Notes: generated from the sequence alone by a model not told the origin. DNA of 8,143 bases from Promethearchaeota archaeon (GCA_048939465.1 JBHLPL010000087.1:1-8143), one strand, 5' to 3'. Numbered from the stretch's first letter, positions 2,926 to 8,143 are shown. Translations and numbers: made by a program.

Positions 2926-3387
2926 TTACTCTAGCTTAAGAAAGGTTAAATCATATGAGTCTAAATGCAACTGCCTCAAGCCCCCTGTCTCCAGAGATTT
3001 ATGGCATAGAAGTGCGAAAATGTCCTCAAAACTTATCTGCTCATATTGATCAAACATTTTTGCTCGAATGTATGTTATCCATTCTTCATCTGCATATGTC
3101 GGAGAGAATCTCTGAGTTTCCAGTATCTTGTACGCGTGTTGCATGGCTTCTTCAAGCCTTTCAAACTTCATCTCTATGAGTTTCAATGGGTCCGCATTGA
3201 CAAGCTGAAGAACAATTTCTTTATGTTCTCCTGAATTATGAGAAGCCAAGGTAATCTTGTTCTTAGGGTAAATTCTGTTCACGAGAATAAGAGATAGTTC
3301 CTTTTGGGATACCCTCATTTTGTCAAGTTTTGGTGTTTCCCAGAATGTCTCAACCCTTTGAAGATTTATGGGCTTTTTTGACACCAT
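2926..3387 (-). CDS. Hypothetical protein, 153 aa, no recognised family
   Basis: Long ORF filling the space, ATG preceded by GAGGAAATGAAAT, globular-protein-like composition. Overlapping + strand ORFs are shorter and less plausible. Confidence 0.7.
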   Translation of the reverse strand: MVSKKPINLQRVETFWETPKLDKMRVSQKELSLILVNRIYPKNKITLASHNSGEHKEIVLQLVNADPLKLIEMKFERLEEAMQHAYKILETQRFSPTYADEEWITYIRAKMFDQYEQISFEDIFALLCHKSLETGGLRQLHLDSYDLTFLKLE

Positions 3388-3451
3388 ATTTCATTTCCTC
3401 GCAGTTCTTCTGCAGGGAGGGGCACGACTTTGGTCTCGGCCTCTTGACGGG

Positions 3452-3510
3452 GTGCTTATATTGCTTGATCCTCCGACATATGGTTGTGTTGCCCCAATAC
3501 TTAAATTCCG
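3452..3510. promoter_or_regulatory. Divergent promoter region between the orphan (-) and the GTPase operon (+)
   Basis: CTTATATT at 3455-3462 reads as TATA-like on both strands (AATATAAG on -). A second AT box, ACTTAAAT, lies at 3499-3506. Confidence 0.4.
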
Positions 3511-3514
3511 CTAA

Positions 3515-3943
3515 ATGGAGGGAGCTGTTATACTCGAAGGAATTTCCGTAGGAGACAAGCAAACCAAACTGGAGGAGATACTGGATAGATTAAAGCGCAA
3601 CGCCGCACTCCTCGATGTTGTTTATGCGTCAAATGAAGGTATGACAATCGCTTATTCTTCGACCCTGCCAGAGACCAAGATTGACCTGATCTCGGCTTTG
3701 GGAGCTGCCAAAATATCGCTTGCGAATGACTTTTCAACCAATGTGTATAACTCCTCGACTCCCGCTCCGTTCAGGAAACTCATCCTTGAACATGACGATC
3801 CTAGGAGAATGAATGGCTGCAGACGTGTAGTTCTCATGCCTCTTCTGGAAGGCATTCTCATAACTTTGTCTTCTGAGGTCAATCTGGGGCTCGTTCTTTT
3901 GGAAATGAGAAAAGCTGCACAAATAATCAATCAAATCATATAG
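3515..3943 (+). CDS. Roadblock/LC7 (MglB-like) domain protein
   Basis: Helix LEEILDRL, beta pair VVYASNEGMTIAYS (x-S-x-E/D-G), helix DLISALGAAKISLA, three strands, then C-terminal VNLGLVLLEMRKAAQII, the typical roadblock NLG..LEM..AA ending. It lies directly upstream of a small GTPase. Confidence 0.88.
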   Translation: MEGAVILEGISVGDKQTKLEEILDRLKRNAALLDVVYASNEGMTIAYSSTLPETKIDLISALGAAKISLANDFSTNVYNSSTPAPFRKLILEHDDPRRMNGCRRVVLMPLLEGILITLSSEVNLGLVLLEMRKAAQIINQII

Positions 3944-3953
3944 AGGATAAGAA

Positions 3954-4499
3954 ATGAGGCACCTTTACAAAATACTTGTGATAGGAGAAAGCGGAGTCGG
4001 AAAAACGACCTTTCTGTTGAGGTTTCAAACTGGGAAATATGTCCCAGCAACTTCTACGGTCGGGCTGAAGCCCATGATAATCGGGTTAAGAAACGGTTAC
4101 GGAGACGTGACTAATCTTCAGATTTGGGACTTCGGCGGTCAGGAACATTTTCGCTTTTTTCAGGATAGCTTCTGCAGAGGTGCACACGGAGCAATAATAG
4201 TGTTTGACACTACCGATAATTTCTCTTTCATCAAGATTGGTGGTTTTTGGCTCAACTTCGTTAAGAGAAATGCAGGATGCATACCTGTGATCTTGGTGGG
4301 AGCCAAGATTGATCTCTTCGATCGTCGGCTTATCTACGAGGAAGATGTTGAGCCACTGCATCAAGAAAACAATGAAATCAAGAAAGTGATATTCCTGAGT
4401 TCTAAGATTTCTCCCCCTGGGGTCATTGTTTCGGTATTTCAAGATTTAGTGGATTTTATCGACAAAGAGGGGATAAAAGCATGGACAATGAACAGGTGA
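3954..4499 (+). CDS. Ras-superfamily small GTPase, Rab/Roc-like
   Basis: G1 GESGVGKT (3984-4007), G2 T35 in STVG, G3 WDFGGQE, RabF-like NLQIW/FCRGA/IVFDTT, G4 AKID, G5 SSK; 181 aa. GAGG SD-like motif upstream. Confidence 0.95.
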   Translation: MRHLYKILVIGESGVGKTTFLLRFQTGKYVPATSTVGLKPMIIGLRNGYGDVTNLQIWDFGGQEHFRFFQDSFCRGAHGAIIVFDTTDNFSFIKIGGFWLNFVKRNAGCIPVILVGAKIDLFDRRLIYEEDVEPLHQENNEIKKVIFLSSKISPPGVIVSVFQDLVDFIDKEGIKAWTMNR

Positions 4500-5443
4500 T
4501 TCGATCGAAACTCATAAAGTGGGATGAAAAGCATTACAGGATGGAATGTCCTATTTGCGAAAGAAAGATACCTTTCAAGCTGAATTGGGACCAACATATG
4601 AAGAATATCAGAGAGACAGATGGCAACCCATACGGAATATCAATCATCCATGGCGAGGGAGATAGTGTTCATGCCCTGACCGTCTTTGTGGACAGGGAAG
4701 GAATTACGAGACGAGGAAATGTGTCTGATAGAGTCCTCATAGTGACTAGAAAAAAGCTTGCGAAAAAGAGAGAGGAGTCAGAATCCCCGGAGTCTGATGC
4801 TCTGACAGTTCCATCTCCGTCGCCGAAAAGAACATGGCTCCAGGTCTTTCAGGAGGATCCTGAGGCCAATGTGGAGCTAATAGTCTTCAACAGGAACATG
4901 AGGAGCTATGGAGGTTTCTACAGAGAATTACGCCCCTCGAAATTCTTTGAACTAGTCAGTTCATCGATTAACGGACCGATCCAGCTCATGAACGAAGGAA
5001 TTGTCCACATAATTCCTGCAGAGAAACATACGTTTGTTTTGAGGGACGGAAAGAATATCAAGAGAATAGAACCACTAGTACGTTTCTTCAACAAGATTGA
5101 CAGCGTGACATCAATCGAAAGACTTCATAGAACGATCCTAAGAATTCTTGTACAATATATTTCACTTCCATCAGAAGCCTTCCTTGATGACGCGTTAATC
5201 ATGGTCAAGGATCTGCACAAATTGGTCCGAATCGATTTTGATGACATTCCTGAGTCGGCTTGGGATACGGTTCTGGGAGCGCTTGGAAAAGTATTGTCGT
5301 CCAAAAGACTGGAAGAAAAAGTGTGGAATATGGAGCTCTACAGACTTCTAGAGATGCTCCCTCTAGATGACTCTGTCTTATTTGGTGACGTAATCAAAAA
5401 CTACCCAAATCTAAAGAGTTTGGGGATTATCCGTGCGTGGTGA
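4481..5443 (+). CDS. Hypothetical 320-aa multidomain protein: N-terminal CxxC/His putative Zn-binding domain, charged Ser/Pro linker, alpha/beta (possibly longin-like) domain, helical C-terminus
   Basis: CPIC (4547-4558), HG and H-ALTVFVD (H at 4670); low-complexity linker KKREESESPESDALTVPSPSPKR. Overlaps the GTPase stop by 19 bp, consistent with translational coupling. Confidence 0.8.
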   Translation: MDNEQVIRSKLIKWDEKHYRMECPICERKIPFKLNWDQHMKNIRETDGNPYGISIIHGEGDSVHALTVFVDREGITRRGNVSDRVLIVTRKKLAKKREESESPESDALTVPSPSPKRTWLQVFQEDPEANVELIVFNRNMRSYGGFYRELRPSKFFELVSSSINGPIQLMNEGIVHIIPAEKHTFVLRDGKNIKRIEPLVRFFNKIDSVTSIERLHRTILRILVQYISLPSEAFLDDALIMVKDLHKLVRIDFDDIPESAWDTVLGALGKVLSSKRLEEKVWNMELYRLLEMLPLDDSVLFGDVIKNYPNLKSLGIIRAW

Positions 5444-5444
5444 T
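5439..5444 (+). promoter_or_regulatory. Shine-Dalgarno-like GGTGAT overlapping the upstream TGA stop
   Basis: GGTGAT lies 5 nt before the ATG at 5450 and matches the archaeal SD consensus (GGAGGTGA). Similar GGGGTGA and GAGGTGA motifs precede the HD and Zn-finger genes. Confidence 0.55.
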
Positions 5445-5449
5445 TAAAT

Positions 5450-6505
5450 ATGGCGATTGAAGGATTAAGTCGAAAAATAAGAACATGGAGATTTTTGATA
5501 GGAACAGGGCGCAAGCTCTCAAAGGAGAATGTTGGTAGTAAACTGACCATACCGGAATTCTATAGGGGGGTTAGGAAATCAGGATTCTGGGAGTATCTAG
5601 GCGAATCCAACCCAAAAACCGTCGAAGAGGTAATTGAGAGGTTCGGAATCCAACGGAAAGACTACTTGCGCAGGGTTTTTGATCTTCTAGTAGATAAGCA
5701 AGTGTTGACACCGATGCTCAACGATAAGGGAGAGAGAGCCTATTGTGTGAACAAGAAAGGACTCAAAAAATGGCTAAAGCTATCTGCGACTTATGAGAAA
5801 TCCTTTGCTCCATTCTTCGAATCATCAGAAGAGCACGAATTAATGATGCGATATTTACAGGGAAAAAAAACAGCGTTTGCCTCCCGCGATGAAATGATAA
5901 AGTGGTATAAAACTCTGAGTGAGGAGTTCCACGAAACTGGAAGGGAGCTACTTATGACTTTTGGAGGCAGTGAATCTTTCAGAGGCAAGCACATTCTTGA
6001 CCTCGGATGCGGTTTTGGTGACGAGATCCAGCAGCTCTATGAAAGATTCGATGGAGACTGTAAGATTACGGGAATAGATTTTGATAGCTCACTGGTCGAA
6101 ATTGCCAAGAGAAGGGAAGTCTACGATCAGAATGGAAAAATCAAGCGATTAGGTGATCTTCAGAACGTCAGAATAATAGCTGTGGATATAGGAAAACCGT
6201 TTCCACTTGATGACGAATCCGTGGATACGGTCTTCTGTTTCGCCCAGTTGTATTGGCCAAAACCTGAACAACAGAAGCTGGAGGTACAAGAATCTTGTCG
6301 AGTGCTCAGAGCCGGTGGAAAGCTACTTGTCGCAGGAGTATTTGATCCAGACCATCCCTTGGTTCTCTGGGTCCAACCACACGGAGGATACGGATATGTC
6401 TCAAGAAAGAGCTTCACACAATGGTGCAAAGATGGTGGATTGGAAAAGCAATCGTTTGGTGTCCTCGGTGGCTTATTCGTTGGTGAGAAGACGCCAATGA
6501 ACTGA
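5450..6505 (+). CDS. Class I SAM-dependent methyltransferase with N-terminal winged-helix-like domain
   Basis: Motif I ILDLGCGFG (5993-6019), acidic post-I ITGIDFD, PFPLDDESVDTVFC and CRVLRAGGKLLV. The N-terminal TVEEVIERFGI..DYLRRVFDLLVDKQVL pattern is wHTH-like. Confidence 0.9.
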   Translation: MAIEGLSRKIRTWRFLIGTGRKLSKENVGSKLTIPEFYRGVRKSGFWEYLGESNPKTVEEVIERFGIQRKDYLRRVFDLLVDKQVLTPMLNDKGERAYCVNKKGLKKWLKLSATYEKSFAPFFESSEEHELMMRYLQGKKTAFASRDEMIKWYKTLSEEFHETGRELLMTFGGSESFRGKHILDLGCGFGDEIQQLYERFDGDCKITGIDFDSSLVEIAKRREVYDQNGKIKRLGDLQNVRIIAVDIGKPFPLDDESVDTVFCFAQLYWPKPEQQKLEVQESCRVLRAGGKLLVAGVFDPDHPLVLWVQPHGGYGYVSRKSFTQWCKDGGLEKQSFGVLGGLFVGEKTPMN

Positions 6506-6531
6506 GGAAATGAATCTTCCTTAACCTATCC

Positions 6532-7155
6532 CTAAATTGTCAGACCGCCCAGCCTGAGCTCCTCGAATAGCTGTTGCGCGAATGATCTTACTAGCTTTGA
6601 TCTTTCTGCTGAGATCTTTCTGCCCGCAGCCGTCTTAAAATCGCTTAAGAGCTCGCATCGCCACTTTATCTTGGCGATAATATGATCCCATCCTGCTCCC
6701 TTTACTATGGCACTAAGTGCTGTCCTGAGAAGTCCAACTGCCCCTACCATATCTAGTCCATCTGCATCATATATGACCTTGGCCTCTAGAGATTTAGGTG
6801 TTTTCAGGCTGGAGATTCTACTGTGAGACTCGATGCATTCGATAACTTGTTCAATCATTTTCTCATCCGTGCCAAACTCGCTGAGAACACTGCGAGCGAT
6901 TTCTGAACCAATAATCGTGTGTGATCGCCCTTCTTTCATTTCGGCTCTTTTTCCTATGTCATGAAGAAGTGCTGATAATCTGACGATGTTTTCGTTGGCC
7001 CCTTCCTTTCTAGCAATCCGTATTGCATACGCTTCCACTCTTCTTGCATGCCAGTAATCGTGATGAAGATCCTCTGCCAAATTAGCTCGAACATATTCGT
7101 CAACTTTTTTGATGATGCTTTCAATATCACTTCTTGGTGCCCCGCTCAATATCAC
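6532..7155 (-). CDS. HD-superfamily metal-dependent phosphohydrolase
   Basis: HDYWHARRV, ALLHDIGK, SHTIIGS, IESHS and YDADGLD give the H...HD...H...H...D pattern. Start is GTG 7155 or TTG 7149 after GGGGTGA. Confidence 0.92.
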   Translation of the reverse strand: MILSGAPRSDIESIIKKVDEYVRANLAEDLHHDYWHARRVEAYAIRIARKEGANENIVRLSALLHDIGKRAEMKEGRSHTIIGSEIARSVLSEFGTDEKMIEQVIECIESHSRISSLKTPKSLEAKVIYDADGLDMVGAVGLLRTALSAIVKGAGWDHIIAKIKWRCELLSDFKTAAGRKISAERSKLVRSFAQQLFEELRLGGLTI

Positions 7156-8143
7156 TCACCCCAGATCTTATCAAATATGTTCCAAGAACTCTCTTTGAGC
7201 CAGCCGGTATACTAAACTCTGAGACCATGACGGTCCTATTAGCGAAAATATCAATCAAATTGAAGGAATTGCCATATGGATCTTGATACTGTTTCCTGCA
7301 CAGTGTTCCAGAATTGATAACCAAGCAACCGTCTACCATTAGACAAGAAGAAATACTTCTGTCCCCGGTTAGAACGATGTCTGCATTTCCTATCATGTTC
7401 CTCAAAACATCAGCTGTATCCTCAAGGACTTCTTCTTCCCTAACGTAAGGTAGCGGCATTAAATGATGGTGAAACGCAACGAGTTTGACAGTCTTTTTAC
7501 CTGCTTTGTTTAGCTTTCCAAGAATTCTCTCAAGATTCTTGCGGCCGATCACACCTCCCGTATAATCCCTTTGAGAACTGTTGACTCCAACAATTATGAT
7601 ATTCTCATTTTGGAAAAGCGGGTTTAGTCCTCCCACATAATCCTCAAAAACTAGGTCTCCGATATTCATAAGATCGTGAGGACCTGGTACGGCGATTAAT
7701 GGTGTCTTGACCTTCTTTAAGAGCTTCTCAGCTTCCTCAAATGTCTCATGCATTCCATCTTCGGTAATATTACCACAGTGAGCTACAACATCTGGCTTTA
7801 ATCTATTAATGATTGTGGTAGCAACATCATACACTCTCCGGTCAAACAAACCGTCACCCATAAAATATGTATCGGATATCTGTATTACTCTGGCGATTCT
7901 AGGCAATTTCACTTGAACGAGTCTTTCTACTCGTCTTGCTTTCTTTATATACTCTTCTTTGTGGTCGATATCTAATCGCCTTACTATGACTCGAACCCCC
8001 TTGTCAGAGACTTTTATCAAATTGTAACTCCTTCCGTGATATCCCCTTGTTTTGAAGTGAGACAATGTTCCAGTGCTTATTATAAGTGCATCCTCCACTC
8101 CATGAATACTATAAACATGACGATGCCCATTAAGAACAATATC
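7127..8143 (-). CDS. Tandem (two-domain) Icc/CpdA-like metallophosphoesterase; 5'-truncated; C-terminal domain degenerate
   Basis: Frame is open from the window end: DIVLNGHRH (intact GHxH, 8128-8117) closes domain 1. Domain 2 has QISDTY, HCGNIT, VPGPHD, FHHHL and VLTGDRS at the five calcineurin-like motif positions. The track start at 8098 is internal. Confidence 0.85.
   Translation of the reverse strand, partial: DIVLNGHRHVYSIHGVEDALIISTGTLSHFKTRGYHGRSYNLIKVSDKGVRVIVRRLDIDHKEEYIKKARRVERLVQVKLPRIARVIQISDTYFMGDGLFDRRVYDVATTIINRLKPDVVAHCGNITEDGMHETFEEAEKLLKKVKTPLIAVPGPHDLMNIGDLVFEDYVGGLNPLFQNENIIIVGVNSSQRDYTGGVIGRKNLERILGKLNKAGKKTVKLVAFHHHLMPLPYVREEEVLEDTADVLRNMIGNADIVLTGDRSISSCLMVDGCLVINSGTLCRKQYQDPYGNSFNLIDIFANRTVMVSEFSIPAGSKRVLGTYLIRSGVSDIERGTKK

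Follow-up and report, generated by a model that had tools for sequence, protein, structure and literature searches.

A zinc-domain protein as a candidate link between a Rab-like GTPase and a methyltransferase in Asgard archaea

A recurrent GTPase, zinc-protein and methyltransferase trio

Genes for a Ras-family GTPase, a protein with an unnamed zinc-ribbon-like domain and a methyltransferase follow one another in at least 12 genera and 5 families of Asgard archaea. Judging from gene order and profile searches, contig C12 of an Asgard metagenome-assembled genome (1.96 Mb, 91% complete) appears to hold a lineage-specific four-gene version of this Asgard-wide three-gene module. The window analysed here is the entire contig of 8143 bp, and the nearest named protein comes from 'Candidatus Hodarchaeota archaeon'. 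Its four co-oriented genes code for a roadblock/LC7 protein (P0001), a Rab-like GTPase (P0002), a 320-amino-acid (aa) zinc-domain protein (P0003) and a class I S-adenosyl methionine (SAM) methyltransferase (P0004). Asgard archaea possess dozens of eukaryote-like small GTPases, and to our knowledge the partners of these proteins are almost unknown; rarely can a genome be read for both the likely partner and the enzymatic output of an archaeal small GTPase. As Tran et al. (PMC10933270) note for MK-D1, an Asgard archaeon in culture, its GTPase genes generally do not share operons with roadblock, longin or TRAPPC3 genes, and regulators are therefore difficult to assign to individual GTPases. What is added here is the trio in at least 12 genera, the unnamed domain encoded next to GTPases and a dedicated roadblock gene in the window's genus; all three provide concrete protein pairs and an enzymatic read-out in the form of methyl transfer. 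We found no description of the trio or of the zinc domain in Asgard archaea in the literature searched.

Several Asgard families contain full-length homologues of P0004 (22–36% identity), frequently with more than one copy in a genome. For 16 of the 21 homologues from outside the window's genus, the gene immediately upstream on the same strand codes for a 270–320-aa protein with a CxxC...H...H pattern, at gaps between −23 and +57 bp; one further homologue has the zinc protein encoded downstream, three stand alone and one is located at a contig end. In this first sample, every cassette of zinc protein and methyltransferase outside family f7 adjoins a Ras-family GTPase gene. The corresponding GTPases consist of 185–232 aa, contain intact G motifs and reach 35–42 bits with a cut-off of 21.6. 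Another 16 loci, picked solely by their match to the zinc-protein profile, served as a replicate sample and yielded the order GTPase, zinc protein, methyltransferase at 11 loci, together with one reordered trio, three loci with a GTPase gene followed by the zinc-protein gene alone, and one with the zinc-protein and methyltransferase genes alone. A trio was defined as a zinc-domain gene directly upstream of a P0004-family methyltransferase gene, with a Ras-family GTPase gene directly upstream of both, and genes 2 to 4 of the window are arranged in this way. Because related genomes are not independent samples, we counted recurrence in both samples by genera and families rather than by loci. Ras-family genes number 18–38 per genome, which corresponds to about 1% of the genes.

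The initial annotation of the window, made from its sequence, had treated all four genes as one unit. The last three recur together in other Asgard families, and the lack of synteny that would have refuted the annotation was thus not observed for them. Searches with a roadblock profile detected no roadblock gene upstream of the trio loci in either sample; as part of the arrangement, it was found in the window's genus only. An earlier tblastn search with the four window proteins over 20 methyltransferase and 27 GTPase loci had indicated no synteny at all; this result was a false negative because the partners are too divergent, and profile searches found them. Among the loci collected, one from the Thor-type genome G074 carries two complete trios in tandem (L036:5144-10624), and another contains a tandem duplication of the GTPase/zinc-protein pair (L149).

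The same four genes are present in the same order in two congeneric genomes (G001 and G002). Pairwise ratios of non-synonymous to synonymous substitution rates (dN/dS) of 0.05–0.13 across all four genes indicate purifying selection, with values of 0.12 for the roadblock gene, 0.05 for the GTPase gene, 0.10 for gene 3 and 0.05–0.07 for the methyltransferase gene. Because this range holds for each of them, we regard all four as real coding genes.

The GTPase gene (3954–4499, plus strand) codes for 181 aa. P0002 matched the Pfam family Ras with 96.8 bits (cut-off 21.6), and its closest solved relatives are Ypt1, Rab35 and Rab1 (E 7e-24), which agrees with its first annotation as a Rab-like GTPase. 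The motifs G1 (GESGVGKT), G2 (T35), G3 (DFGGQ), G4 (AKID) and a G5-like SSK were recognized; in G4 (window 4302–4313), Ala replaces the Asn of the usual NKxD. Residues K17, T35, D59, G62, K118 and D120 are invariant in an alignment of 42 GTPase sequences. A C-terminal Cys prenylation motif is absent from P0002, which ends in ...KEGIKAWTMNR, and its Ras-profile score ranks about 9th among the 18 Ras-family matches of its own genome. The term Rab-like is used as a description of the sequence and does not count P0002 among the Rab family proper. In a tree of the 42 GTPases, those encoded beside zinc-domain genes are spread over several Ras clades; the association therefore goes with the zinc domain rather than with a single GTPase lineage. 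In the Thor-type trios, the GTPases form a separate long-branched clade (support 100/100), and P0002 sits among Rab-like sequences, including zinc-paired ones from families f13 and f16.

The methyltransferase gene (5450–6505, plus strand, 351 aa) yielded Pfam matches to Methyltransf_31, _25 and _11 with 59, 55 and 50 bits, each above the cut-off. The protein starts with a conserved helical extension resembling a winged helix-turn-helix (wHTH; residues ~1–165, 5450–5944, plus strand), followed by the Rossmann core (residues ~170–300, 5957–6349, plus strand) with motif I, LDLGCGFG. This motif and D210 are kept across 23 homologues, in which D184, G186, G190, D255, D259, W269, E281, R284 and G290 are invariant. 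The Pfam matches and the conserved SAM-binding residues confirm the predicted SAM methyltransferase and assign it to class I. Its closest solved chain is 8hd2 (AmxMT1; E 9e-7, residues 37–298), which represents the C-methyltransferase type acting on small molecules linked to acyl carrier protein (ACP).

The roadblock gene (3515–3943, plus strand, 142 aa) was more difficult to assign. The direct match of P0001 to Pfam Robl_LC7 (PF03259) remained sub-threshold (E 0.062, 13.5 bits versus a cut-off of 23). Its family profile (A5) aligned by hhalign with a profile of 11 Asgard roadblock proteins (A6) over 120 columns with a probability of 98.8% (E 1e-16), and all 11 of these proteins match PF03259 (best E 3e-18). 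Because of this alignment to Pfam-positive proteins, the roadblock assignment stands, with P0001 as a divergent member of the roadblock/LC7 family. The start codon of this gene (window 3512–3517, directly after a TAA) reads ACG instead of ATG in both congeners (L002:532-540; L003:3412-3420, minus strand). Codons 2–42 evolve as coding sequence in the congeners, with synonymous to non-synonymous ratios of 14:7 and 11:6, which equal that of the remaining gene.

The zinc domain and its different contexts

The third gene (4481–5443, plus strand, 320 aa) codes for a protein without any Pfam or NCBIfam family (Pfam searched to E <= 0.1). A word-indexed single-sequence search with P0003 found just four proteins, and an exhaustive phmmer search of 1.8 billion representatives found two matches, one near-identical and one a 102-aa fragment. 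A profile of P0003 sequences detected residues ~17–90 in many Asgard proteins. The N-terminal, unnamed zinc-ribbon-like domain of P0003 comprises residues ~17–85 (4529–4735, plus strand) and contains the putative zinc ligands C23 (4547–4549), C26 (4556–4558), H57 (4649–4651) and H64 (4670–4672, all plus strand). All four are invariant in 57 domain sequences and again in an alignment of 21 sequences, and because of this conservation the putative Cys2His2 zinc binding is well supported; G58, T67, D71 and R77 are nearly invariant in the 57 sequences. A hidden Markov model (HMM) of the domain built without the window's genus recovered the open reading frame (ORF) of P0003 with an E value of 5.7e-17. 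The N-terminal domain also aligned by hhalign with a GTPase-linked family of 150-aa proteins (97%, E 5.5e-11).

The relationship to the zinc proteins of other cassettes extends over nearly the whole length of P0003. Its profile A1 aligned by hhalign with nine zinc proteins of family f7 at 97.2% (E 3e-11) over 257 columns covering residues 1–318, with KNYxxLKNxGII as a shared C-terminal motif. P0003 is thus a full-length homologue of the 270–320-aa f7 proteins, which are encoded upstream of the same methyltransferase family. Leave-out HMMs for the f7 group and for the Thor-type group of methyltransferase-linked zinc proteins missed P0003 in hmmsearch, and hhalign found the f7 group.

We modelled P0003 with AlphaFold2 (AF2). 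Prediction from the single sequence was unusable, with a mean predicted local distance difference test score (pLDDT) of 37.7. The alignment-based model reached a pLDDT of 75–87 for residues 11–85, which show an alpha/beta arrangement of a strand hairpin, a helix and further strands. A Foldseek search of the Protein Data Bank (PDB) with this model gave nothing below E 0.08, and profiles A1 and A7 gave no match to PDB sequences. In the ESM Atlas, the model retrieved only unnamed Asgard clusters by shape, and the search by features gave scores of 0.85–0.86, which serve as leads only. The weak fold matches of the N-terminal domain comprise small unnamed archaeal proteins and zinc-ribbon miniproteins of the CPXCG, CpXC and Trm112 types. 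Weak Pfam matches of the 57 domain members, all below the cut-offs, include DUF7560 (13/57), Zn_ribbon_Brz (11/57) and Cys_rich_CPXG among the 25 of 44 families shown. Gene 3 had been described as longin-like in the initial annotation, and this name was not supported: the N-terminal domain weakly matched zinc-ribbon and CPxCG-type proteins with no longin or roadblock chain among the matches listed, and the modelled domain lacks the closing helices of the longin beta-beta-alpha-beta-beta-beta-alpha-alpha fold. A VIA search with P0003 was filled by its helical C-terminal part.

The zinc domain is encoded beside GTPase genes far more often than the background of about 1% predicts, and it also occurs with other outputs than a methyltransferase. 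In the 150-aa proteins, the same N-terminal domain is joined to an end with weak wHTH- and DUF742-like similarity, and their genes are followed by a gene for a 203-aa V4R-domain protein. V4R is the prokaryotic relative of the TRAPP subunit Bet3; the V4R matches of the 203-aa proteins remain below the Pfam cut-off (E 1e-7 to 1e-4). Sets of GTPase, 150-aa zinc protein and 203-aa V4R protein were seen in Thor-type genomes at L095:916-2546, L102:2950-4609, L104:2627-4283, L113:3051-4689, L116:2819-4487 and L117:2722-4595. The adaptor of these sets contains the zinc domain of P0003 and follows a Ras-like GTPase gene, as in the window, whereas the output gene of the window codes for a methyltransferase; eukaryotic TRAPP is a distant reference for such sets. 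Profile comparison detected no match between the P0003 family and V4R, the C-terminal part included. In a second type of ~740–760 aa, the domain precedes tetratricopeptide repeats (TPR), and each of these loci has a Ras-family GTPase gene directly in front (L150:2404-5251, L151:1569-4671 and L152:2145-7353, the last with two zinc/TPR proteins in tandem). More generally, genes of the 150-aa and TPR types usually have a Ras-family GTPase gene as their immediate upstream neighbour in the same orientation. A third type, seen in family f27, consists of 365–376-aa fusions to a DegV (fatty-acid-binding) domain (L105:3250-4359, L111:3466-4563 and L094:949-2079), with the DegV domain confirmed by Pfam for L105 only; no GTPase gene was seen beside them in the flanks examined.

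Possible roles of the zinc protein

Read most economically, these arrangements point to a zinc domain that docks on the GTPase and a variable remainder that is responsible for the output. In the window, the output would be formed by this remainder and the methyltransferase. The roadblock protein, whose gene was found upstream in this genus only, would set the nucleotide state of the Rab-like GTPase, acting either as an MglB-like GTPase-activating protein (GAP) or as a platform for a guanine nucleotide exchange factor (GEF). The GTP-bound GTPase would then bind the N-terminal zinc domain of P0003, the remainder of which would hold the methyltransferase encoded by the translationally coupled next gene, and methylation of a substrate would thereby be placed or switched on by the state of the GTPase. 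We consider the chances about evenly balanced for a zinc protein that links the methyltransferase to the state of the GTPase. In a wider sense, the ~65-aa Cys2His2 domain might serve as an Asgard-wide docking module for GTP-bound Ras/Rab-like GTPases that heads otherwise unrelated effectors, a proposal we rate somewhat short of even. Its effectors would tentatively comprise the methyltransferase-coupled proteins, the wHTH proteins paired with V4R/Bet3-fold proteins, the TPR scaffolds and possibly the DegV lipid-binding proteins. If the zinc domain indeed docks GTPases, it would be a prokaryotic counterpart of the Rab/Ras-binding domains of effectors, and gene order could reveal which GTPase goes with which effector in the archaea most closely related to eukaryotes, offering a route to maps of GTPase wiring; the window would then represent a complete chain of regulator, switch, adaptor and enzyme.

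A comparable use of small zinc modules is known from eukaryotes. EEA1 and Rabenosyn-5 are effectors that bind GTP-bound Rab5 through C2H2 zinc fingers at their N-termini (PMC7036122, citing Mishra et al. 2010). The likeness to these fingers lies in a small N-terminal Cys2His2 module heading unrelated effectors and is an analogy, not homology; in P0003, the His pair is predicted to lie in a beta-hairpin (HGx2-7H) and not in a helix, and the ~65-aa domain contains a beta-meander.

Several observations weigh against the coupling of the GTPase to the methyltransferase by P0003. Ten f7 methyltransferase cassettes, which contain the closest full-length relatives of P0003, have no upstream GTPase gene, suggesting that the pair of zinc protein and methyltransferase is able to function with no GTPase encoded next to it. 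P0002 falls outside the clade of the Thor-type trio GTPases, and the arrangement in the window may have been assembled separately. AmxMT1 as the nearest solved relative of P0004 neither hints at a role in signalling nor gives a clue to the substrate. Residues 89–320 of P0003 had a pLDDT below 55, so the N-terminal domain alone could be modelled. Gene neighbourhood also does not distinguish methylation as an output of the switch from methylation as its input. A complex prediction with GTPase, methyltransferase, P0003 and GTP scored 0.01 with the partner's own fold uncertain, and speaks neither for nor against binding.

Roadblock proteins are encoded beside small GTPases in MglA-MglB and in the actinobacterial conservons (CvnA-D), and conservons additionally contain a wHTH-type DUF742 protein and sometimes an enzyme gene. 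The window shares the adjacent genes for roadblock protein and small GTPase. It differs from the conservons, and is not counted among them, in that it lacks a sensor kinase, with no kinase gene found in the 8.1-kb contig, and in that its GTPase is Ras/Rab-like rather than MglA-type. P0003 has no DUF742 match either, weak similarity to DUF742 and HTH_47 being limited to its 150-aa relatives.

The main rival to docking assigns P0003 a role like that of Trm112. It would be an activating or substrate-recognition subunit of the methyltransferase, with the GTPase or its GTP-state complex as the methylation substrate, and methylation would tune the switch. Trm112, a small alpha/beta protein that binds zinc, is an activator of class I methyltransferases (PMC3152332). 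In its holoenzymes, such as Mtq2-Trm112 (PMC3152332, PMC6144793), a zinc-binding alpha/beta module is the partner of a class I enzyme, which resembles the pairing in the window. As substrate, Mtq2-Trm112 requires a GTPase complex in its GTP-bound form, namely eRF1-eRF3 with GTP, not GDP (PMC3152332). The pairing of zinc protein and methyltransferase is the most constant link, present in 17 of the 21 cassettes including those without a GTPase, and an AlphaFold DB cluster named 'Trm112 family protein' weakly matched the N-terminal domain (E 2e-2, TM score 0.55 by the hit, root-mean-square deviation 9.6). Fusions of a Trm112 domain with a methyltransferase do occur in Asgard genomes: a 332-aa protein (L163:1486-2484) has a zinc knuckle of the Trm112 type at its N-terminus, joined to the core of a class I methyltransferase (VLDIGCGVG), and several similar open frames of ~330 aa match Pfam Trm112p in other genomes. 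However, the Pfam model Trm112p (PF03966) misses P0003, its only match in the genome being sub-threshold and on contig C32, and the 25 of 44 matched families shown for the 57 domain members do not include PF03966. Using hhalign, just 10 columns around the CPxC knuckle were aligned, with a Trm112 alignment of poor quality, and no sequence relationship to P0003 was detected beyond this knuckle. P0003 also differs from Trm112 in its predicted ligands (Cys2His2 versus Cys4), in its length of 320 aa with a large extra part and in the family of its methyltransferase. Furthermore, the same N-terminal domain is found in proteins with a GTPase gene upstream and no methyltransferase nearby. We regard a Trm112-like role as rather unlikely.

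Another possibility is that P0003 is a GEF or GAP of the GTPase and that the methyltransferase is itself the effector, bound directly to the GTPase. The described system nearest to the window is an Asgard operon (Liu et al., bioRxiv 10.1101/2020.10.19.343400), proposed to act as a regulatory module for GTPases. Its genes code in turn for a roadblock protein resembling LAMTOR1, a Rab-like GTPase and a DENN protein. As in the window, a roadblock protein, a Rab-like GTPase and a third Asgard-specific protein form a tight unit; in that operon a candidate GEF takes the third place, and its order is matched by the first three genes of the window. The third protein of the window, however, is zinc-ribbon-like with no detectable DENN or longin signature in Pfam and fold searches, and a methyltransferase gene follows as the fourth. 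In addition, the conserved core of the window consists of GTPase, zinc protein and methyltransferase, with the roadblock gene upstream in this genus only. P0003 had no DENN match at E <= 0.1, but in 61 Asgard genomes the Pfam DENN model likewise gave no match that passed its cut-off, and it is thus blind to the Asgard DENN proteins of Liu et al. The fusions of the zinc domain to wHTH-like, TPR and DegV parts speak against a catalytic regulator, since such different C-terminal parts fit a docking module better. Altogether, we consider a GEF or GAP function improbable.

A role of P0003 as a DNA- or RNA-binding regulator, composed of a zinc ribbon and a helical, wHTH-like end, would reduce the clustering to co-regulation instead of a protein complex. 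The weak matches to the transcription regulator zinc ribbon Zn_ribbon_Brz and to DUF7560 would fit, as would those of the 150-aa relatives to HTH_47, Sigma70_r4 and DUF742 and one AlphaFold DB match named 'Transcriptional regulator'. All of these supporting matches are below curated cut-offs, however, and a profile comparison of the C-terminal part of P0003 with the wHTH part of the 150-aa proteins gave no match. The repeated translational coupling to GTPase and methyltransferase genes is also atypical of a stand-alone regulator, and we rate this role as quite improbable. That the four genes are mere neighbours without a shared function is very improbable, as the gene order recurs in 12 genera and 5 families against a GTPase-gene background of about 1%.

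Gene layout and surroundings

The ORF coordinates reproduce the layout first annotated for the window, with four same-strand genes at gaps of 10, −19 and 6 bp, a divergent neighbour on the left and a convergent one on the right. Motifs resembling Shine-Dalgarno (SD) sequences, also noted at the outset, were located before genes 2, 3 and 4. GAGGA (3943–3947, plus strand) lies 6 nt before the ATG of the GTPase gene (3954) and shares the last base of the roadblock stop codon. GAGGGG (4467–4472, plus strand) precedes the ATG of gene 3 (4481) by 8 nt within the 3' end of the GTPase gene, with which gene 3 overlaps by 19 bp. GGTGA (5439–5443, plus strand), which overlaps the gene 3 stop codon, lies at a distance of 6 nt from the ATG of the methyltransferase gene (5450).

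The divergent intergenic region of 127 bp (3388–3514) separates the roadblock gene from a minus-strand ORF of 153 aa (2926–3387); it presumably contains the promoter region and includes a TATA-like TTATAT near 3453–3460. A promoter and terminator scan remained at chance level, its models being of bacterial type and not informative for an archaeon. No Pfam or NCBIfam family was assigned to the 153-aa ORF; both congeneric genomes have an ORF of about this size in the same place, a likeness based on size and position. On the right side, an HD-domain gene (6532–7155, minus strand) follows at a distance of 26 bp.

The other neighbours are as ordinary as the HD-domain gene: a GPR1/FUN34/YaaH transporter fragment (18–431), a calcineurin-like phosphoesterase (891–1754), an AP endonuclease 2/xylose isomerase-like TIM barrel protein (1817–2662) and a metallophosphoesterase (7127–8143). 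PADLOC gave only a match to a generic methyltransferase domain (mad2), which does not support a defence system. No RNA runs with the window stretch or gene 3 were found among the matches listed. DNA nearly identical to window positions 3400–6600 was found in sediment and mangrove metagenome runs from at least 5 studies.

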